From Candidatus Heimdallarchaeota archaeon (lineage in GTDB: Archaea > Asgardarchaeota > Wukongarchaeia > Wukongarchaeales > JBHIFL01): a stretch of 10,459 nucleotides of DNA. Position numbers and translations under genes: made by a program. Within the stretch, counting starts at the first letter, position 1, and each line of letters begins with the position of its first letter. The DNA lies in the NCBI GenBank assembly GCA_046761065.1, contig JBHIFL010000115.1:1-10459 (forward strand). Reading direction: 5' to 3'. The notes under the pieces are model-generated. The model was not told the origin of the DNA. It made no database searches and was given only the letters and a program-made list of their open reading frames with translations. Positions 1,671 to 10,459 of this stretch are shown one piece after another.

Positions 1671-1721
1671 ACAGGCCAGCCAGGTGGAACTCCTGGCCCT
1701 GTCGCAGGGGACGATCCTGGG
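1671..1721 (+). repeat. GC-rich intergenic repeat, copy A (5' third only)
   Basis: caggccagccaggtggaactcctggccctgtcgcaggggacgatcct aligns with the start of copies C, E and F. Confidence 0.8.
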
Positions 1722-1756
1722 AAGGAATTGCAAACAAGATACTCATTTAAGCACAG

Positions 1757-2020
1757 TCATTTATAGATTTTTCCTCTTGTTTCTATTTTTAGCACAATAA
1801 TCCTTCTAGGATCCCTTTCTAGTTCATAGAGAATTCTATATCGACCCAGTCGGATCCGGTAGAGGTTTGTATACCCTCTAACCTTTTTGTAGGGATAACT
1901 GAAGGGGTTTTTTCTTAACTACGTAAAAATTTCTTTCAACTTCTCCCGATACCCCCGGTCCAAATTCTCCATAAATGTAGCTGCGTGTTTAGTAAAAAGG
2001 AGGTCAAATCCGCTGGTCAC
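1757..2020 (-). pseudogene. relE: RelE/ParE-family toxin with in-frame TAG at codon 34
   Basis: The GTG start overlaps the antitoxin stop (GTGA). Translation MTSGFDLLFTKHAATFMENLDRGYREKLKEIFT*LRKNPFSYPYKKVRGYTNLYRIRLGRYRILYELERDPRRIIVLKIETRGKIYK has the RelE YRIRxGxYRILY and RGxIY motifs. The TAG is at 1919-1921. Confidence 0.88.
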
Positions 2021-2202
2021 TCGGGAAACACTCCCTGAAACGGGATAAAGTCTCCTTTTTGAATTTCCTCTCTCAATTGGGCGATTTCTTCTTGTTCCTC
2101 CTCAGTTAAGTCCTCAAATCCTAGAAAATTATCGATTTTCGCATTGATTTCTAGCAACAATTGTTCGATTTTGCTCATCTTTTCTAGGAGCGTGTCCACC
2201 AT
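2017..2202 (-). CDS. Acidic antitoxin (archaeal RelB-like) paired with the RelE toxin
   Basis: 61 aa with an acidic C-terminus (EDLTEEEQEEIAQLREEIQKGDFIPF), strong RBS GAGGTGAGGAG, and coupling to relE. Confidence 0.8.
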   Translation of the reverse strand: MVDTLLEKMSKIEQLLLEINAKIDNFLGFEDLTEEEQEEIAQLREEIQKGDFIPFQGVFPE

Positions 2203-2243
2203 TTCTCCTCACCTCATGTCCTCAGACTCCTTTTGGAGAATTC

Positions 2244-2257
2244 TTATAAAAACTTTG
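2244..2257 (-). promoter_or_regulatory. Archaeal BRE/TATA promoter of the relBE-like operon
   Basis: The minus strand reads CAAAGTTTTTATAA about 45 nt upstream of the ATG at 2202. Confidence 0.55.
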
Positions 2258-2317
2258 ATGTACTTTTCGCTCAGATTGGGAATGGACTTAAAGATGAACC
2301 AGTCGAATCTACTAAGT

Positions 2318-2460
2318 GAGTAGGAGCCTCAGGGGAAACTCCCAGCTCTGTTTCGGGCTCTCGAGGAGCCATAACTCCGTGGTGACGCTCATACGACATG
2401 ACACCCACTCGACGGCGGGGGCGCGACTCCAGCGGTCGGGGGCTTCACGCATCAAGGAGT
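2318..2460 (+). repeat. GC-rich intergenic repeat, copy B (near full length, 14-nt internal deletion)
   Basis: gagtaggag...tcgggctctcgaggagccataactccgtggtga...catgacacccactcgacggcg...gggggcttc...caaggagt. Confidence 0.92.
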
Positions 2461-2508
2461 GGTCTAAAAGGAGCGATTCATGAGCTCGAGCGAATTGTTG
2501 GTACTTGG

Positions 2509-2769
2509 CTACTCTTGCCACAGTTTATAGGCATTAATAATAACCAACCCTTCCGGTTCGCCTTTTGCATTCCTTTCTATATAAACCGGGCCTTGTTGAT
2601 CTATCATGTCGCTCTCCGCGATTTCAGGGTTAATCTTAAAGTAAATGTAGAGGACATCTGCTTCTTCGTCATAATCTAGGCTCACAACATGTGGGAGGCT
2701 CAAGGCATTTTTTTCGAGCACTCGGTGGACGGTTCGCAATGGATCAATTTTCATTAGAGTTCTGGCCAC
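2509..2769 (-). CDS. DUF2283-family protein (putative antitoxin)
   Basis: LDYDEEADVLYIYF...AESDM...IERNAKGEPEGLVIINA is the typical DUF2283 pattern. RBS GAGGAG lies upstream. Confidence 0.85.
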   Translation of the reverse strand: MARTLMKIDPLRTVHRVLEKNALSLPHVVSLDYDEEADVLYIYFKINPEIAESDMIDQQGPVYIERNAKGEPEGLVIINAYKLWQE

Positions 2770-3050
2770 TCTGCGTATCTCCTCGTAAAATTTGCAAGAT
2801 TAATAGGGATTACCGTAATAATAAATCCATCGATTTCGAACGCTTTATAGAGCACGACTAAGCAGTCGGTGAATCCACCTAAGTTTCCCCACTCTGTATT
2901 GACGGTATGAACTTCACATCCCTATGGATTATTCACCAAGTGATTAGGATTCTTGACCGTTTCCAAGAGGTGGTCCACTTGCAATGTTTTCGGAAACCGT
3001 TTTCGGGTGATATGTTGCCATTGCACCAGGGTTAAGCGAATCTTCAGATC
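2754..3050 (-). pseudogene. Decayed RelE-like/DUF4258-type toxin paired with DUF2283
   Basis: KIRLTLVQWQHITRK...LLETVKNPNHLVNNP*...CLVVLYKAFEIDGFIITVIP. In-frame TAG at 2922-2924, no clean start, and it overlaps the DUF2283 start. Confidence 0.7.
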
Positions 3051-3137
3051 GGGATCCCAAAGGATATGGCACAGGTAAGAATAAGAACAAAAAAAAGAAG
3101 AATCATAACGTGCGAAGAAGATAGATAGGGAAGAGAT

Positions 3138-3839
3138 ATGCCATCAGAGAACCTGGAGGAGCGAGATAATGTGCATGACAAGAAGGAGAGGATAGATACC
3201 ACACTTCGGTTCGTCTTAAAGGCGGGACAGGTAAGGAGGTTGCCGAAGGATATCGCTAGCGCTCCATCCAAAATTCGCTTGAGCCAAAAAATCCTCGACC
3301 AGGGGAACAAAGCTGTTCGACGTGCCAATGCCTCGGGAAATGAATGGGGTTTTTTCTTTCATCTTAGTAAGCAGGGGCAATTCCTCCCAAGTGAACTGAA
3401 AGAAGGCACTCCTCAAGTTTGGATTAGTCGAGAAGAGTACTTAAAGGCCAAAAAACAGGATGAAACGCTCCAAGGGCTTTTACATACGCATCCCGAGGCG
3501 AAAACGGTGTTTAGTGAGAGTAATATAGGATTTTTCCTCGACGCCATTGATGTTATTCATATTTGTATGGATTCTCAAGGGGATTATTTCCTCATTCTGC
3601 GCACCGAAAAAACTCCTCCTCCTCACGAAGGGCTGTTTGAGGAGGCTGTCAATCAGTATATCGATTTAGCCCGAAAAGAAACAGTCACCTATGTTCGAGA
3701 ACATGATCTGGAGCATACCAAGGATTCCGCCGAAGCCATTAATCACGGGCTCTTTGAAGCGATGAAAGCGGTATGCAAAAAGTATAATATCGTCCTCTAC
3801 ATAGGTAGAAGTAGGAAGGCTGCGGAGAAGGTGGAGTAA
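3138..3839 (+). CDS. JAB/MPN (JAMM)-like domain protein, possible toxin
   Basis: 233 aa. NEWGFFF upstream and GLLHTHPEAKTVFSESNI fit E...HxHx7SxxD, with the final D replaced by N. Confidence 0.6.
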   Translation: MPSENLEERDNVHDKKERIDTTLRFVLKAGQVRRLPKDIASAPSKIRLSQKILDQGNKAVRRANASGNEWGFFFHLSKQGQFLPSELKEGTPQVWISREEYLKAKKQDETLQGLLHTHPEAKTVFSESNIGFFLDAIDVIHICMDSQGDYFLILRTEKTPPPHEGLFEEAVNQYIDLARKETVTYVREHDLEHTKDSAEAINHGLFEAMKAVCKKYNIVLYIGRSRKAAEKVE

Positions 3840-4007
3840 GTGAAAAAGTCAGAACAGATCCAACACGAACTTTTGAAGCGTGTGAGAGAGGGAAGGACCT
3901 TTTTAGGGGACCTAAGTGGTATTCGCGAATTTCTGGAGGCGGTCGTGGAGGAAACAATAGAGGAAAAAGCCAAACCCAAGAAAGAACAAGCGCAGGTGAA
4001 GACATAA
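3840..4007 (+). CDS. Small hypothetical protein (55 aa) coupled to the JAB-like gene
   Basis: GTG directly follows the upstream TAA, with RBS AGGTGGAG. Translation MKKSEQIQHELLKRVREGRTFLGDLSGIREFLEAVVEETIEEKAKPKKEQAQVKT. It is shorter than any ORF in the track. Confidence 0.65.
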   Translation: MKKSEQIQHELLKRVREGRTFLGDLSGIREFLEAVVEETIEEKAKPKKEQAQVKT

Positions 4008-4200
4008 CCCGTTCTTGGGACTTCTAGTCTTGAATTATTTCCATGACTATCAAAATTCGCTCCTTTTGGGGAGTAAAACCGGAGAATTCTTGTTCCTCTA
4101 GTTTTATGGTTTATAGAGAGCGAGTAGAGCTAATCTCCACATCTGAAAAAAAACTGGTTTGTAGAGATAAAGAGTGTATTTGGTGAAGGGATCTTCCAAC

Positions 4201-4294
4201 GATCAGGCGACCCCGGGAGAACTCCTGGGCCTGTCGCGGGGGATGATCCTCGGGCTCTCGATGAGCCATAACTCCGTGGTGAAGCTCGTGCGAC
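4201..4294 (+). repeat. GC-rich intergenic repeat, copy C (3' truncated)
   Basis: gatcaggcgaccccgggagaactcctgggcctgtcgcgggggatgatcctcgggctctcgatgagccataactccgtggtgaagctcgtgcgac. Confidence 0.92.
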
Positions 4295-4439
4295 TAGGAA
4301 TTTTCCACTGGTTGATTTCATCTTAATCCCAGAAGGGATCGTTGGCTTTCTTCTCGCGACACTCCTGGTAGCGATGATTCCTATGCGACAATGGAGTAAA
4401 AAGTGTTAATTTGCCAATCACGCATTCCTGCAAAACACC

Positions 4440-4883
4440 TCAATCTATCGATTCAAGATTAATTACTTCGATTTTCATCCTTTTTGCATACTGTAATATG
4501 AATTTATCCGATGTAACGAGTGGGAATGCGTATTTTCGAGCGGTTGCTACATGGAATGCGTCAAAAAAGTGAAGTTTTCTTGGCCCCCCATACAGACTGT
4601 AGTATTTTAGAGCACTTATTGAGATGTCAAGAGTAGAATAAACGCATTTATGTTTTATTGCAGCTAGATCCTCCAAAATCCTTATAATTTGCGAATTAGT
4701 TGTTCCTTGGGACTTATAGGCAGTTATGATGTCCATATAAAATTCAGGGGAACCGATGAGCTTTATTTGATCTGTATTTGCTCTCTTTATAAGTATGGCT
4801 GAATGATCTGCCAAGGCGTTGTCTGCCAAATAGGCGATGATAACATCCGCATCGATCAGAACCTTAGTTTGAATGGTTTTCAT
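4440..4883 (-). CDS. vapC: PIN-domain VapC toxin
   Basis: VLIDADVIIAYL...LHFFDAFHVATA...LVTSDK are PIN motifs. The ATG at 4883 follows AAGGAG and overlaps the antitoxin. Confidence 0.9.
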   Translation of the reverse strand: MKTIQTKVLIDADVIIAYLADNALADHSAILIKRANTDQIKLIGSPEFYMDIITAYKSQGTTNSQIIRILEDLAAIKHKCVYSTLDISISALKYYSLYGGPRKLHFFDAFHVATARKYAFPLVTSDKFILQYAKRMKIEVINLESID

Positions 4884-5103
4884 GGGCAAGCTCCTTGAGA
4901 AATTTTTCTTGATCTTCTTCGATCTCTTCTATGGATTTTTCGAGGCGATATTTCCCTCTCAAGCTGTCAACAGGCGGTATAGGTACCAATCGGATTTCTC
5001 CCTCGAAAAGTTCAACCAAGAAGCGATTAGTTTTTATTTTATCTCGGATTTCTTTTGGAATTACCATTCTGCCTTTTTTATCATATTCAATTACATGACT
5101 CAT
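4864..5103 (-). CDS. AbrB/MazE/SpoVT-family antitoxin
   Basis: DKKGRMVIPKEIRDKI...GEIRLVP is the swapped-hairpin signature, followed by an acidic tail. It lies upstream of the PIN gene. Confidence 0.9.
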   Translation of the reverse strand: MSHVIEYDKKGRMVIPKEIRDKIKTNRFLVELFEGEIRLVPIPPVDSLRGKYRLEKSIEEIEEDQEKFLKELAHENHSN

Positions 5104-5180
5104 TTTCCCACATGTTTAATTTTTTTCCACTTATAATTATATTTTCCCATTTTATTATAATATTTCCCATTTCGATAATG
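5101..5180 (-). promoter_or_regulatory. AT-rich promoter/operator region with four ~20-bp-periodic TTTCC(C)A boxes
   Basis: ttttccca, ttttcca, ttttccca and tttccca at about 5103, 5123, 5142 and 5163, just upstream of the AbrB-type gene. Confidence 0.55.
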
Positions 5181-5205
5181 TTATGTCGCCTGGAGTTGCG
5201 GTTCA

Positions 5206-5329
5206 GCGAGGTGGAAGATTCTCGGGCTCTCGATGCGCCATCACTCCGGGGTGACGTTCGTGCGCCATGAAACCCACTCGGCGGCGTAGACGCTCCCACC
5301 GAGTTCAGGACTCTCGTACCCGAAGAGGC
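5206..5329 (+). repeat. GC-rich intergenic repeat, copy D (5' truncated, divergent 3' end)
   Basis: gaagattctcgggctctcgatgcgccatcactccggggtgacgttcgtgcgccatgaaacccactcggcggcgtagacgctcccaccg. Confidence 0.88.
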
Positions 5330-5438
5330 GCTTCACTGACCAAAAAAAGGTTTAAAACGGAGTGAAGGCATCTAACATAAGTGAGTGCCTGTATCCCTCC
5401 ACTTCAAAATATTCTAGATTCTGCCTATAGAATGAAGG

Positions 5439-5463
5439 TTTAAATAATCTGTGTGTATACACA
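5439..5463 (+). promoter_or_regulatory. TATA box plus palindromic operator of vapBC
   Basis: TTTAAATA at 5439-5446 is followed by the perfect 12-bp palindrome TGTGTATACACA at 5452-5463. Confidence 0.65.
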
Positions 5464-5478
5464 TATGTGGAGAATAAA

Positions 5479-5706
5479 ATGGGAAGTAAAACGATAAGCC
5501 TTGATGAAGAGGCATATTCACGTCTCAAACAAGAAAAAAAGGATAAAGAATCCTTTTCTGATGTAGTTAAGCGTATTACTCGGCCTATGAAACAGAAATC
5601 CCTCTTAGAATTTGCGGGAATTTGGCAATTATCTATAGAAGAATGGGAAACAATGCAACACGCCCTAGCAGACTTACGGAGCCAGTTTGATGATTTGTTT
5701 GGATAG
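5479..5706 (+). CDS. vapB: Archaeal VapB-family antitoxin (DUF217-like)
   Basis: MGSKTISLDEEAYSRLKQEKKDKESFSDVVKRI...LLEFAGIW. The ATG at 5479 follows GGAG. Confidence 0.9.
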   Translation: MGSKTISLDEEAYSRLKQEKKDKESFSDVVKRITRPMKQKSLLEFAGIWQLSIEEWETMQHALADLRSQFDDLFG

Positions 5707-6085
5707 CGATATAATGATGGCGTTCCTTCGAGGCGATCAGGACGCCGTGGCTAAAATCAAAGAACTTGACCCCGAGCGAGAGGTCGTGTCAACTGCTATC
5801 AACGCGTTGGAACTTTTTGTTGGGATTGTTGCGGTAGAAGGCGTCTCAGGAAAGCGCGTTGAGGCGACACGCGAGTTTCTTTCCACATTAACTATTTTTC
5901 CCTTAAATACCGGGGCCGCAGAACGGACAGCTTACATTTTAAATACCCTCAAGAAGATGGGAACCCCAATTGGCTTGAAAGATTCATTGATCGCTGGAAT
6001 TGTCCTCGAAAACAACCTGACTTTAGTGACCAAAAATATTAAGCATTTTGAGCGCGTGGCAGGATTAAAACTTGAAAGCTGGTGA
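5690..6085 (+). CDS. vapC: PIN-domain VapC toxin
   Basis: MICLDSDIMMAFLRG...ELFVG...GTPIGLKDSLIAGIVLENNLTLVTKNIKHFERVAGL. Confidence 0.93.
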   Translation: MICLDSDIMMAFLRGDQDAVAKIKELDPEREVVSTAINALELFVGIVAVEGVSGKRVEATREFLSTLTIFPLNTGAAERTAYILNTLKKMGTPIGLKDSLIAGIVLENNLTLVTKNIKHFERVAGLKLESW

Positions 6086-6331
6086 ATGAAGCTGAACTCA
6101 TCCCCCTCAGCAAGCGGAGTTAGTTAGACACTAGGCGTTAGTATTGCATGCGTCTCGGACTCATCTTGTTTTGAATGGTCTTTCGCGGGTTGTTTATCCC
6201 TTAGGACTACCTTTGATTTTTCATCATTGGTTGTTCCAAAAATACGGTGATTCGGTACCGGCTTTCACGATGTTCTTTAAACAAACAAATTCTCTATTGG
6301 GTGAAATTTCTACTAAATAACTCCTCCAAAC

Positions 6332-6489
6332 GAGTAGGAGAGCCAAGTGGACCGCCCGGTCTTGTCGCGAGGGACGATCCTCGGGCTCTCGATGAGCAAT
6401 CACTCCGTGGTGAGGTCCGTGCAAGATGACACACACTCGGCGGCGTGGCCGCGCCCTCTGGGTTTGGGAGCTTCCGTGCACCAAGGAGT
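6332..6489 (+). repeat. GC-rich intergenic repeat, copy E (full length, 158 bp)
   Basis: Colinear with copy F, about 80% identical by hand count (about 30 substitutions and one indel). Confidence 0.93.
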
Positions 6490-6574
6490 TCTTGAGTTCC
6501 CGCAAAGTGTCCTAGTCTCCTTTTGGTTTTAGTCTAGGGAGAAGATGCTTGGGGTCATTTGGTGCGAAATGATC

Positions 6575-6613
6575 GGAATCTGTGTAACCCTTCAAGGGGG
6601 AGGTAGAGTTCAC
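6575..6613 (+). mobile_element. Degenerate IS200/IS605-type right end
   Basis: ggaatc...cccttcaagggggaggtagagttcac has a short palindrome and ends in GTTCAC, like the right end at 7028. Confidence 0.35.
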
Positions 6614-6663
6614 AGAAACAAAAGAAAAGGAGTACTTGTGGCACTTTACTCGGGATATTAGGC

Positions 6664-6975
6664 TTATTGGCGAGTGGTGAGTGCCCGAGAAGTGTGGAGA
6701 AAGGGAGTCAGGATGTCCTTGGAGAGTGGGGTTAAATCAATAGTAAGCGATGGATTGCGCGTTTTTACCGTCTCCCTGATGGTTCCTTGGACGGTGCAAA
6801 GTTTCTCGCAGGCAACACTAATTTCGCTAATGGTGTATGTGAACTAAGGTTGATTAGTTGGCGAAACCCGGTGAAGCGAAGTTTCCCGACCCCCACAGCG
6901 CAGTCTGCAATCCATGTATCGAATCTGGATGTGTACGCGAGAATGTAGTGGGTATTTTTCTGGGATCGCTGAGAT
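6664..6975 (-). pseudogene. Possible frameshifted C-terminal fragment of a DDE transposase (IS4/IS1634-like)
   Basis: Two frames read HYILAYTSRFDTW... and YTISEISVACEKLCTVQGTI...DLTPLSKDILTPF. The resemblance is weak and by eye only. Confidence 0.2.
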
Positions 6976-7027
6976 CCGATTCATTATTGAAGGGTAAATT
7001 TTCTATTTTGTGCACATTGTAATAGGA

Positions 7028-7291
7028 GTGAACTACCCCGCCCTGCCAGACGGAGCTTCGGGCGAAGGGTGCTGTCCAACGACGGTTGGCAGCCTTATTC
7101 GCATCGGACGATTCACACGCCCACTACTTCCTATCCTTGCGGATTCAGAAGCTACTTTGAGGATTTGATAGTCCATTTCAGCACTAGATACATTGCCCCA
7201 TCCTCACAAATTATTATACTTCCAATGATTTAAACCCTGTGTGAGCGATTCACCTCCCCACTTTCGCAGGGATTCTTCTCGCCAATTTGAG
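7028..7291 (-). mobile_element. Non-autonomous IS200/IS605 derivative (PATE-like) with internally deleted tnpB
   Basis: Minus strand: TTTAT target (7296-7292), left end CTCAAATTGGCGAGAAGAATCCC...GGGGAGGTGAATCGC, TATA-like TTTAAAT, a tnpB-like tail ILKVASESARIGSSGRVNRPMRIR...EAPSGRAG*, and right end GAAGCTCCGTCTGGCAGGGCGGGGTAGTTCAC. Confidence 0.8.
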
Positions 7292-7338
7292 ATAAATCTT
7301 ATTTTTAAAAAAATCTACTCAGGGGGTGTGAAAAAATC

Positions 7339-7899
7339 ATGTCAAGTGTCATTAACCTCTGGATTTTTTATGTTGCAGGCTATGCTATCGCCTATTCCTT
7401 GCAGATCTGGGCGAATAGAAAACGAGGAGAGCCTTTTGATGACCCTGAATTTTTATTTCAGGGTAAAAATATCATTGTTCCCGCCTTGTTATGGCTCATA
7501 GGAGGATTTATAATTAGCCTCTTTGTCCCCGTTAATTTTGGGTTTTTATTCTACCTGGGCTTATTTTTTGCCATTGTGGGATTACTCATAGGGGGATTAG
7601 CAATGTATTCGTTTGCACACGAACGCGGACTTACTACGACGAAAATTCATCGTTATTCAAGAAATCCGGTTTATGTTGGATGGACATTCTTTATTGGGGG
7701 TCTGTCTTTGATAGGTTGGTCTGAATCAGTCTGGAGCATCATTTTTCTTATTTATTTCATCATTACTTTACCTTATTTTCACTGGACCGTTTTGCTTGAG
7801 GAGGCCTTTTTAGCTACCAAGTATGGTGATTCCTACCAAGAATATCGGAAAATAACTCCAAGATATTTGGGGATACCAAAAAAGTTGCCTAGCCAATAG
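7339..7899 (+). CDS. Isoprenylcysteine carboxylmethyltransferase (Ste14/PEMT) family membrane protein
   Basis: Several hydrophobic segments, plus the motifs YSRNPVYVG and EEAFLATKYGDSYQEYRKITPRY. Confidence 0.88.
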   Translation: MSSVINLWIFYVAGYAIAYSLQIWANRKRGEPFDDPEFLFQGKNIIVPALLWLIGGFIISLFVPVNFGFLFYLGLFFAIVGLLIGGLAMYSFAHERGLTTTKIHRYSRNPVYVGWTFFIGGLSLIGWSESVWSIIFLIYFIITLPYFHWTVLLEEAFLATKYGDSYQEYRKITPRYLGIPKKLPSQ

Positions 7900-8021
7900 T
7901 TTGAACCAAGACCCATCCCGCTCATGGGGGACCCAATTCCGTATTCTCAAAGGGTTGGCAACTGTTGATATTTTTATTCTAGGTTATCTCTGTTGGAGGA
8001 CTTCGAAGTCCAGGTAGGACA

Positions 8022-8131
8022 TTGAAGTTCCACTTGTACGAGATAGAAATCTGGGTTTTCTTAAGCAGAAAGACCCCGTTCTTCTGAGTCTATCTCCACC
8101 CTTTCAGATGTAGTCTTCTCGCCAATTTGAG
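8022..8131 (-). mobile_element. Second IS200/IS605 left-end copy, possibly a ~110-bp miniature element
   Basis: tcttctcgccaatttgagataaa (8114-8136) is identical to 7274-7296. Internal hairpin gggttttct/agaaagaccc. A possible right end terminates in TTCAA at 8022 (uncertain). Confidence 0.6.
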
Positions 8132-8231
8132 ATAAACTCCTGTGAATTTTCCTTCTCTCGTGAGTTAAATATCCCTATTGCAAAAGATTCTTAGTCCCTC
8201 CCCATCTTCCTTAGAAGTGAAGTGGTTGGAT

Positions 8232-8471
8232 ATGTTCCCTGATAGAATTGTGGTTAACCCAAAAATCTTAGGGGGAAAACCAGTCATTAAAGGAACCCGC
8301 ATCCCCGTCTATATTATTTTACAAATGCTCCGGGATGGCGCGTCTTTTGAAAAAATCCTGAAAGAATATCCCCGCTTATCGGTTGAAGACCTTCGTGCAG
8401 TGTTGGACTATTCTATGTACCTAATTGATCCTGGGAATGAAGAAGAAATTCCGCTAAGTCAGGAACCTTGA
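8232..8471 (+). CDS. DUF433-family antitoxin
   Basis: RIVVNPKILGGKPVIKGTRIPV...ILKEYPRLSVEDLRAVLDY. The ATG at 8232 is preferred to the TTG at 8178. Confidence 0.92.
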   Translation: MFPDRIVVNPKILGGKPVIKGTRIPVYIILQMLRDGASFEKILKEYPRLSVEDLRAVLDYSMYLIDPGNEEEIPLSQEP

Positions 8472-8854
8472 GATGCAAGTCCTTGCAGTTAATTGTTGAT
8501 GAATGTTTAGCGGAGTCCACGGTGTCGCTCCTGCGTGAGCTCGGGTTTAAAATCGTGCAAATCAGCTCGATTCTATCTTGGGGCGCGGAGGATGAAGACA
8601 TTTTCAGGTTTGCATCCCACCATCAAATCCCCTTGATTACCCATGACCGACGATTTGGTCAAATCTACTTTGATTACGTGAAGGAGCCAGCCACCACCAT
8701 TATTCTTCAAGTACAGTCTCATCATCCTGAAGCTACGAATACTTTGCTACGTGATGCGTTTTCTAAAATCAATTTAACTACTGATAAATTTAAAGGAAAG
8801 TTAATTCTGATTTCATCGAGTCGGATTCGAATCCGCCAGAAGTCTAGTCCCTAA
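8468..8854 (+). CDS. DUF5615 (Mut7-C-like PIN) toxin
   Basis: LIVDECL...GAEDEDIFRFA...LITHDRRFG. It overlaps the DUF433 stop (TTGA). Confidence 0.88.
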   Translation: MRCKSLQLIVDECLAESTVSLLRELGFKIVQISSILSWGAEDEDIFRFASHHQIPLITHDRRFGQIYFDYVKEPATTIILQVQSHHPEATNTLLRDAFSKINLTTDKFKGKLILISSSRIRIRQKSSP

Positions 8855-8879
8855 AAGGAAATAGAATGAAACTACCTCA

Positions 8880-9036
8880 GAGCAGGAGACCCAGGGGGAC
8901 CTCCCGTCCCTGTCGCGAGGGAAGATCCTCGAGCCCTCGATGAGCCATCATTCCATGGTGAAACGCGTGCAACATGACACACACTCGGCGGCGTGAACGC
9001 GCCCACCGGACTCGGGGGCTTCGCGCTCCAAGGAGC
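8880..9036 (+). repeat. GC-rich intergenic repeat, copy F (full length, 157 bp)
   Basis: gagcaggagacccagggggacctcccgtccctgtcgcgagggaagatcctcgagccctcgatgagccatcattccatggtga...catgacacacactcggcggcgtg...gggggcttc...ccaaggagc. Confidence 0.93.
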
Positions 9037-9191
9037 TGGCCCCGTGACGTTCTGGGTCCACCGCTATCCCAGCGGCTTGTCTAGCTGGGATCGGATTATT
9101 CAGCTCTGGGTGCCTCGGAATGATGGGGTTATCACCCAAAACAATAAGTATCCTCATCGTATTGTCCATATTGGAGGGATTTAACGCTAAA

Positions 9192-9782
9192 ATGGCGGAT
9201 CTGAACAGAATGACCAAGGTTGACGTCTTAATAAATATCTTGACGAATGTTGAAGGGAGGATGAGCGATCGGGAGGATGCAGCTAATGAACTGGGGAGAT
9301 TAGGAGATAAAAAAGCGGTCATTCCGCTCCTCCATATCCTCCAAGAGGAAAATAGCAATCTTCGTGTGGTCATCGTGAAGAACCTTGGGAACCTCCGGGA
9401 TGCGCGAGCCCTTGACGCCCTCCTACAAGCAATGCAGGATGACCACCGAGTGGTTCGAAGAGCCACCGCCACCGCCCTTGGAAACTTTCAGGATGGGAGA
9501 GCCGTCCCCGTCCTCTTACAAGCCCTTCATGATAAAGACTGGGAAGTTCAACAACACGCCGCCAAAGCTCTTGAAGCGATTGGAGACCCAACGGTCGTTC
9601 CACTCATCGAGAGGCTCCAAGACGAATCCAAATATGTTCGTAGGGCCGCTGCTAGGGTACTCGGCGCGATCGGCGATCAAAAAGCGATCGAACCCCTGAA
9701 ACAGACGTTGAACGATGAAGATCGCGGGGTTCGGATAGTAGCTAAGAAATCCTTAGATAAAATCCGGGAAAAAACCCGTTGA
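9192..9782 (+). CDS. HEAT-repeat (PBS lyase-like) protein
   Basis: Repeated VRxxAAxALGxIGDxxAVxxLxxALxD units. The ATG at 9192 after GGAGG is preferred to 9120. Confidence 0.9.
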   Translation: MADLNRMTKVDVLINILTNVEGRMSDREDAANELGRLGDKKAVIPLLHILQEENSNLRVVIVKNLGNLRDARALDALLQAMQDDHRVVRRATATALGNFQDGRAVPVLLQALHDKDWEVQQHAAKALEAIGDPTVVPLIERLQDESKYVRRAAARVLGAIGDQKAIEPLKQTLNDEDRGVRIVAKKSLDKIREKTR

Positions 9783-9851
9783 CTCAGGAAGGTCGGAAAA
9801 AGAAAAGGAGACAACCGAGCGCCGGTTACGGGGCGCAACTGCTTGGGGGAT

Positions 9852-9881
9852 TTTCGCCGGGATTCTTCTCGCCAATTTGAG
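9852..9881 (-). mobile_element. Third IS200/IS605 left-end copy (truncated)
   Basis: tttcgccgggattcttctcgccaatttgagataaa (9852-9886) matches 7262-7296 at 34 of 35 nt, including the TTTAT target. Confidence 0.7.
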
Positions 9882-9937
9882 ATAAAAGCCTAGGGAGAAA
9901 CAAATCTTACAAAGACATTTTCAATTCACGTGTAGAG

Positions 9938-10459
9938 ATGCTGATTATGCATTCAAGACAACTGTTCTTAGATAGAATCAATGGGAAAGAGTCTTCTATG
10001 AAAAGAAAACCAGAAATTACACTTATTAATTGGAATGTTTCTAATCCATCTTTGCAGCGTGCACTAAACCAGATCGAATGATTGTTGAAATTAGATCCTA
10101 ATATAATAATACTAACAGAAACAAAGTTTTCTCAGGGTTGTGTATATTTAAACGATAGATTGATAAGTTTAGGATATCATGTAGTGTTCCCAAAACCTAA
10201 AGCACCCGGATATGGGGTGCTTTTCGCAAGCAAACTACACCCAAGAAAAACAAGTTTTGCAAACAACATTGATACTGATTTTCGTGCTCGTGTGATATCA
10301 GTAAAACTACCATATCTTGCAGCTGAATTGGAGATCGTTGCTGTATATGTTCCTAATAAGAGAGATGAAAAAAAGAAGAATTTCTTACAAAGTTTACTCA
10401 AGTCCTTAGATAATTCACCTCTAACATCAAATCGGATTTTTTGTGGGGACTTGAATATC
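9938..10459 (+). pseudogene. Endonuclease/exonuclease/phosphatase (ExoIII-like) gene with in-frame TGA; runs off the window
   Basis: ITLINWNV...QIE*LLKLDPNIIILTETK...GYGVLFASK...IVAVYVPN...IFCGDLNI. The TGA at 10079-10081 falls where ExoIII homologs usually have Trp. The start may be 9938, 9947 or 9998. Confidence 0.85.

Follow-up and report, generated by a model that had tools for sequence, protein, structure and literature searches.

Copies of a folded element from the 3' end of ARAMP operons are the joints of a toxin–antitoxin cassette array in an Asgard archaeon

Introduction

Integron arrays and clusters of attC sites lacking integron integrases (CALINs), including those of archaea, consist of small modules set between co-oriented repeats, with a cargo rich in toxin–antitoxin (TA) genes, repeats that are more alike within a genome, and a module order that varies among relatives (Ghaly et al., 2022; PMC9668308). 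The same features are found in a contig of 10,459 nucleotides from Candidatus Heimdallarchaeota archaeon (assembly GCA_046761065.1, contig JBHIFL010000115.1), analysed over its whole length and called here the window, in which copies of a repeat element, R, separate TA and other modules. Unlike integrons and CALINs, however, this locus has no attC cores or attC fold and no adjoining intI, its modules lie in both orientations and reach 2.4 kb, and exchange follows no fixed crossover. We show that the R copies are joints between TA gene blocks, giving an integron-like outcome without integron sites, and that the array is a repeat-bounded cassette array built on an undescribed element of ARAMP (Asgard RAMP, after the repeat-associated mysterious proteins).

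Other described arrays match this layout in part. The tandem ssrA islands of Dehalococcoides are likewise stacked and strain-variable, with direct segments of a structured-RNA gene between them, but there many islands encode a serine integrase that produces a fixed 20-bp end (McMurdie et al., 2011; PMC3146451), whereas here the repeats measure 50–160 bp, their ends vary and the modules yielded no integrase. The immunity-gene arrays of the Vibrio cholerae type VI secretion system resemble ours as toxin/immunity-type arrays without an integrase and with a conserved homology anchor, and are proposed to grow by homology-facilitated illegitimate recombination (PMC5361080); in that case a single anchor is used and old genes are displaced, whereas here the anchor is repeated between modules. 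CRISPR arrays, with their short constant repeats and regular spacers, are not matched by copies of 64–157 nt that are ~80% alike and spaced 0.6–2.5 kb apart, nor do the length of R and its dispersed crossovers fit pdif modules, with their 28-bp XerC/XerD sites of 11-6-11 form.

ARAMP, attributed to Makarova et al. (2020), is described in the summaries of PMC8730458 and PMC12669027 as an array-less CRISPR derivative of unknown mechanism. According to those summaries it comprises type III-related RAMPs of the Cas7-like and Cas5-like kinds, a nuclease domain, PD-(D/E)XK-like proteins and a distinct Cas1, with Heimdallarchaeota-named homologues, all of which recur here. The two summaries describe no RNA or repeat, whereas in the present genome an element of ~175 nt ends the operon, is dispersed about 50 times and supplies, through one lineage, the cassette joints. 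In a literature search that did not extend to the original ARAMP and HRAMP publications, no description of an ARAMP-associated RNA or repeat came to light.

Results and discussion

Repeat copies in the window

The window is the entire contig C115 of a 4.4-Mb genome (G000). A preliminary description of this DNA had placed six same-strand, intergenic repeat copies in it, and profile searches bear this out: copies A to F all lie where they had been put, on the + strand and between genes, with matches well beyond chance expectation (E 5e-5 to 2e-44 by nhmmer, 9e-9 to 2.5e-40 by covariance model), and their GC content is 63–69% versus 44% for the window. Contig C164, which overlaps the 5' end of the window by 55 nt, brings a seventh co-oriented copy. 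Numbered on a 175-position consensus (R1–R175), copy A (1658–1721) covers R1–64 and is missing its 3' part; copy B (2318–2461) covers R14–170 with a 14-nt deletion that removes R47–60; copy C (4201–4294) covers R15–105, copy D (5207–5330) R46–170, copy E (6332–6488) R14–168 and copy F (8880–9036) R14–169. The uniform length of ~157 bp first given to them had to be abandoned, as lengths differ and nearly complete copies are limited to B, E and F, and the element's start had to be moved: R begins ~13 nt earlier, and copy A is fused to the remnant of a gene that we call cas5-HD. No position of R is kept in all copies, some of which retain only R86–171 or R122–170. No Rfam 15 family matched any copy down to E 1, the sole match being a chance miRNA away from the repeats. 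Two negatives of the preliminary description, which had seen neither attC features nor clear terminal inverted repeats in the repeat, both hold: the window has no attC-like site, and there is no terminal inverted repeat among those listed; neither a terminal inverted repeat nor a target duplication was seen at R, where shuffling separates the original flanks.

The left flank of copy D (5184–5206), found also on contig C1 and at loci L058, L061 and L062, resembles the first hairpin of R inverted, and the 40 nt after copy B (2462–2505), which repeat the last bases of R and then read ATG, are 95% identical to their counterpart beside a paralogue on contig C131 (C131:1430–1469), although the R parts of the two are only ~75% alike.

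Module exchange among relatives

Relatives of the array were metagenome contigs found via its VapC, DUF2283 and DUF5615 proteins; a scan of GTDB with VapC found no relative. In these contigs, too, arrays are entirely co-oriented, with eight copies at L062, five at L061, four each at L065 and L064, and three at L058. Between the related genomes TA modules are gained, lost and reordered, with breakpoints inside R, which substantiates the earlier description of a co-oriented, cassette-like array. L058 and L059 lack the DUF2283–JAB interval: there the left flank of B meets the right flank of C. At L061 the right flank of C is fused to a Cas5-HD remnant that has an A-like start, and copy D leads via ~300 nt into the DUF433/DUF5615 pair, a joint that recurs in contigs of two other studies (X5 and X7); the VapB–VapC pair of the window was not found at the corresponding position in any of these three. 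At L062 the 3' edge and relE flank of copy A recur with a different left flank, the module of C131 being fused to that relE flank, and the DUF2283 pair comes after a D-type copy. Across the contigs the right flank of C is paired with five different left flanks, the left flank of D with five different right flanks, and the left flank of E is shared with a copy at C87:9683; what follows the DUF5615 end is one of two distinct R starts or no R at all. The AbrB/MazE–VapC module is bounded by R fragments ending at R105 and starting at R46 in the window, on C1 and at L058, L061 and L062. R makes up 4.6% of bases and receives 33 of 90 homology-block ends, which are not independent of one another.

Cas5-HD remnants lie upstream of array copies at five loci (window, C1, L061, L062 and L065), and a full ARAMP locus lies ~30 kb from L061 on the same scaffold. 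Assembly chimeras are an unlikely source of the new joints because the copies differ by ~20% and independent assemblies agree: L058 with L059 from different samples, L062 with L063 from separate assemblies, and X5 with X7 in the joint just described. Joints from 1667, 1713 or 1718 to 2366, 42xx or 5225 were discarded as evidence, since any full-length R paralogue maps in the same way.

Integron and recombinase tests

Our own motif-and-fold script, used in place of IntegronFinder, found no attC sites in the window, C164, C131 or C87, and no RYYYAAC motif occurs in any of 31 aligned R rows. The same script recovers a canonical attC-like site at C94:4973–5034, on a contig that also encodes an integron integrase (C94:7406–8350); a second integrase lies at C178:2735–3466, both score above the TIGR02249 cut-off, and neither contig carries R. 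This Asgard genome thus also has a true integron. No IntI is encoded in the window, outside which the preliminary description had supposed a recombinase to lie, and no recombinase was tied to the array.

Exchange points within R are dispersed. Three-way comparisons put crossovers at ~R28, R49–50, R40–61, R69–71 and R102–108 in different hybrids, and the derived bases that two copies have in common lie mainly up to ~R95 where their left flank is the same and mainly from ~R121 where their right flank is. With exchange points that differ by ~80 nt, and with R dispersed in the genome and at home at the 3' end of the ARAMP operon, the idea of a dedicated site with a fixed crossover finds no support. 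A fixed-length duplication of R around each module was likewise rejected, as overlaps vary, and overlap of R fragments across a module proved uninformative as a test of circle integration, being expected by chance.

R at the 3' end of the ARAMP operon

An iterated profile of R gives 51 matches on 29 contigs of the genome (28 plus, 23 minus), a spread in both orientations which shows that R is not a private cassette site. The best copies overlap a ~300-aa gene at its 3' end; the gene lies downstream of a Cas7-like RAMP, and homologues of its product carry the name Heimdallarchaeota. In intact operons R overlaps the stop codon of this gene, cas5-HD, both in G000 (C25, C36 and C4) and in other assemblies (L023, L024, L026 and L028). 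The AlphaFold model of Cas5-HD (mean predicted local distance difference test score, pLDDT, 82.5) finds its best matches among the RAMP subunits of type III and other class 1 systems and in the HD region of the large Csm subunit: the N-terminal RAMP matches a type III-A Csm subunit (Z 8.8, root mean square deviation 2.8, 111 aligned residues), and the C-terminal domain matches the type III-A Csm large subunit in its N-terminal HD region (Z 9.8, 3.2, 142 aligned). By its predicted structure, Cas5-HD is a RAMP domain like those of class 1 Cas5-group subunits joined to an HD-like domain of the type III-A large-subunit kind. Support for the Cas7-like RAMP is weak but concordant (Pfam RAMPs 0.011; PADLOC Csm3 0.005), and its paralogue on C12 matches TIGR03986 at 2e-7.

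Upstream in the operon, in G000 (C36 and C12) and in other assemblies, stands a divergent giant open reading frame (ORF) of 1300–1470 aa. A profile of its C-terminus retrieves proteins with Pfam Cas_Cas1 matches (7e-12), so that its Cas1 identity is transitive; the ORF itself has no direct Cas1 match, and PDB sequence searches gave nothing significant. A single-sequence fold of the Cas1-like domain was dropped as too poor for use (pLDDT 42). Two such ORFs in G000 are full-length, and the one on C36 retains the family's conserved E, H and D residues. Together, the giant Cas1 homologue, PD-(D/E)XK-like proteins, the Cas7-like RAMP and Cas5-HD identify the operon as the ARAMP gene set. No CRISPR array was noticed at the ARAMP loci read, among which no dedicated CRISPR search was made.

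R is a covarying folded element of ~175 nt at the 3' end of this operon. In its alignment 93% of cells are paired, as against 36–48% in slid controls, double changes fill 36 cells versus 12.9 in shuffles, and the top three pairs by mutual information are all among the predicted ones. The case for structure rests on this covariation because the folding z-scores of single sequences are mostly unremarkable. Changes from U-G to U-A point to an RNA read from the + strand, and R is probably ARAMP's RNA. R is a concrete candidate for both the RNA and the DNA substrate of ARAMP Cas7, Cas5-HD and Cas1.

R is not confined to the operon's end: it also occurs ahead of cas7 and between cas7 and cas5-HD (L026:4476–4646, 5824–6003 and 6870–7040; L028:4794–4966), at L028 within a called 590-aa gene just before its Cas7 part. 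Outside TA islands many copies end at a housekeeping gene's start or stop codon, which the window copies do not. A divergent second ARAMP subtype, whose Cas7 and Cas5-HD are ~30% identical to those of the first, owns a tail repeat with at least three other copies, one of them within a PD-(D/E)XK-like gene (L068, with G000 C12:13974–14039 and ~16050–16200; C15:10957–11139; C30:22691–22798); this repeat is possibly a second RNA family.

Among the 151 genomes of the phylum that were searched, R is present in only two, and ARAMP-type Cas7 in nine (L076–L080), one of which, the near-complete genome G040, has 12 matches, suggesting that the ARAMP module is mobile. Eight genomes with a distant ARAMP Cas7 gave no match to the R model. 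One full R copy lies on a 3.8-kb contig of a genome from another family that has no Cas7 match (L040; G010 C257:2578–2750), either through transfer or through mis-binning.

A TA-island clade of R

In a tree of 57 R copies, with rough bootstrap values and with copy A left out as too short, window copies B to F cluster with copies on C131, C87 and the end of C1, all of them TA-rich islands. Ten TA-island copies are grouped at 97/92, and eleven, including that of C164, at 89/71. The window copies are 81% alike among themselves and 63% alike to other R copies. Array copies keep 79% of pairs, versus 88% elsewhere, and truncations are many; half of the copies are without one or more helices, and E and F retain 69–79% of pairs. 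Paralogous modules in the genome carry R in the same register, and strain contamination as the source of the paralogue on C1 was rejected on contig depth, which equals that of the window (~20) in sample X2. Genome-wide scatter irrespective of cargo, which would mark an ordinary dispersed repeat, thus describes the R family overall and not its TA-associated clade.

How the array may have formed

With a probability of roughly 60%, we favour a reading in which a decayed ARAMP end seeded the R copies and these serve as portable homology, along which ordinary homologous recombination moves addictive TA modules. One R lineage, recognizable as the clade above, would have descended from such an end and multiplied in dispensable TA-rich islands, where its copies would no longer need to be whole; the Cas5-HD remnant with copy A is the probable seed of the array. 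Between direct repeats of 40–160 bp, recombination of the RadA type, presumably by way of a circular intermediate, would delete, re-insert and reorder blocks, keeping co-orientation and creating hybrid repeats, and both shuffling and hybrid repeats are what the relatives display. New junctions between R and a module would first arise by illegitimate joining or by insertion of R, possibly via ARAMP Cas1, and TA addiction would favour the retention of blocks, as is established for superintegrons.

Several observations weigh against this reading. The remaining 57 of the 90 homology-block ends lie outside R, and array copies that are only ~80% alike offer little for efficient homologous recombination. 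No circular intermediate was seen in contigs mapped to the window, which cannot show rare circles. In the mapping of crossovers, window copies took the place of the true parents, and a fixed site could have been obscured by gene conversion. A common 5' edge at ~R14, extended by ~9 nt, recurs on at least six distinct left flanks; it looks like the precise insertion of a free-standing unit, not erosion, and leaves room for a Cas1-driven origin. Most TA genes of the genome lie apart from R, which adjoins 3 of 33 PIN and 3 of 5 DUF433 genes, and C87 holds copies in both orientations.

If ARAMP Cas1 integrated gene-sized DNA at R, the array would be a CRISPR-like record with modules as spacers, later reshuffled by recombination. 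The two full-length Cas1-like ORFs, with conserved residues on C36, the start of arrays at ARAMP remnants, the common edge at R14 and the ARAMP locus on the scaffold of L061 would all suit such a process; yet the R segment common to both sides of a module varies (R14–64, R46–105 or R14–170), divergence shows no leader-to-tail gradient, crossovers are dispersed and no Cas1 gene adjoins any array. We regard this process as unlikely, and to the same degree its corollary that ARAMP has an array after all, in which the ~170-nt RNA element is the repeat and the giant Cas1 inserts TA cassettes, in parallel to integrons. Also unlikely, and a little more so, is that R is a non-autonomous ARAMP end resembling a miniature inverted-repeat transposable element, inserted repeatedly and independently into a tolerant island, with shuffling as an unselected by-product. 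Independent insertion would not predict co-orientation in 7/7, 8/8, 5/5, 4/4, 4/4 and 3/3 copies, a single clade throughout the TA islands or fixed R fragments that move with a module, and no terminal inverted repeat or target duplication was seen; it would account for the 51 matches on 29 contigs in both orientations, for the many copies abutting codons of housekeeping genes, for R ahead of cas7 and between cas7 and cas5-HD, and for R-less versions of several modules (C124, C66 and L060).

The model of the preliminary description, in which R is the site of a site-specific recombinase acting in trans, is very unlikely, as is its variant in which R is a non-canonical substrate of the genome's integron integrases. 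Layout and polymorphism are cassette-like, the genome encodes two IntI above cut-off and integrons are enriched in Asgard archaea (PMC9668308), but a scan that recovers the canonical attC on C94 finds no attC cores in the window, the IntI contigs lack R, no base is common to all copies (as the short R86–171 and R122–170 copies and the deletion of R47–60 in copy B illustrate), and crossovers are dispersed. Hardly credible, finally, is the reading of array copies as guide or scaffold RNAs by which Cas7 and Cas5-HD control neighbouring toxins, so that the cell would be addicted to ARAMP in the manner of CreTA: the pairs kept by E and F and the close tie of one clade to TA genes would be expected, whereas half of the copies miss one or more helices and, apart from the known paralogue, no second site in the genome convincingly matches the 40 nt that follow R. 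These contigs provide comparative evidence that R copies serve as joints for gene-block exchange in Asgard defence islands, where integron-finding tools would miss them.

Cargo modules and neighbouring genes

The last 76 codons of a cas5-HD gene directly precede copy A, as a remnant (1449–1676, + strand) that reads openly into the copy and matches residues 221–296 of the intact C25 gene (tblastn 63%, E 5e-25). Between A and B, a RelE-like toxin frame with an in-frame TAG and a 61-aa putative antitoxin (2017–2202) occupy 1757–2202 on the – strand; the toxin is RelE-like by eye only, the RelB-like 61-aa ORF has no Pfam match, and an R-less paralogue of the module lies on C124. The next interval holds a DUF2283 antitoxin (2509–2769; PF10049, E 2e-8) with an upstream partner bearing an in-frame TAG (together 2509–3065, –), then a JAB-like protein (PF14464, E 0.003, below cut-off) with a 55-aa partner (3138–4007, +). 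The AbrB/MazE-like antitoxin and PIN (VapC) toxin (4440–5103, –), with a clear Pfam match for PIN and a weak one for MazE/AbrB, have an R-less relative at L060, and are followed beyond copy D by VapB (PF02697) and a PIN-type VapC, both Pfam matches (5467–6085, +). A PEMT-family methyltransferase (PF04191, E 5e-7; 7339–7899, +) and a DUF433 antitoxin with a DUF5615 PIN-like toxin, assigned by Pfam (8178–8854, +), lie between E and F. The preliminary description had seen a TA pair in every interval, and Pfam is clear for the two PIN domains, the VAPB antitoxin, DUF2283, DUF433 and DUF5615; MazE/AbrB and JAB are weak, and in-frame stops break the toxins of two of the five pairs, namely the RelE-like frame and the partner of DUF2283.

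After copy F follow a HEAT-repeat protein (9120–9782, +), whose paralogue on C1 has no adjoining R, and an exonuclease III-like gene (9998–10459) with an in-frame TGA at 10079–10081, the third cargo gene with a nonsense codon. At 7026–7297 lies a miniature element that is IS200/IS605-like by the look of its end sequence; it has many copies in the genome and end fragments at 8094–8136 and 9844–9886, and is distinct from R. In run X5 an element of this kind adjoins position 4247 in copy C. An RNase J-like beta-CASP gene (3–1226, –, continuing into C164; TIGR00649, 4e-16), with a weak Cas14 match, separates the C164 copy from the Cas5-HD remnant. At L023 two cyclophilin-like genes (1497–1871 and 6764–7111), right after an R copy, enclose a block of beta-lactamase, repressor and M56 peptidase genes.

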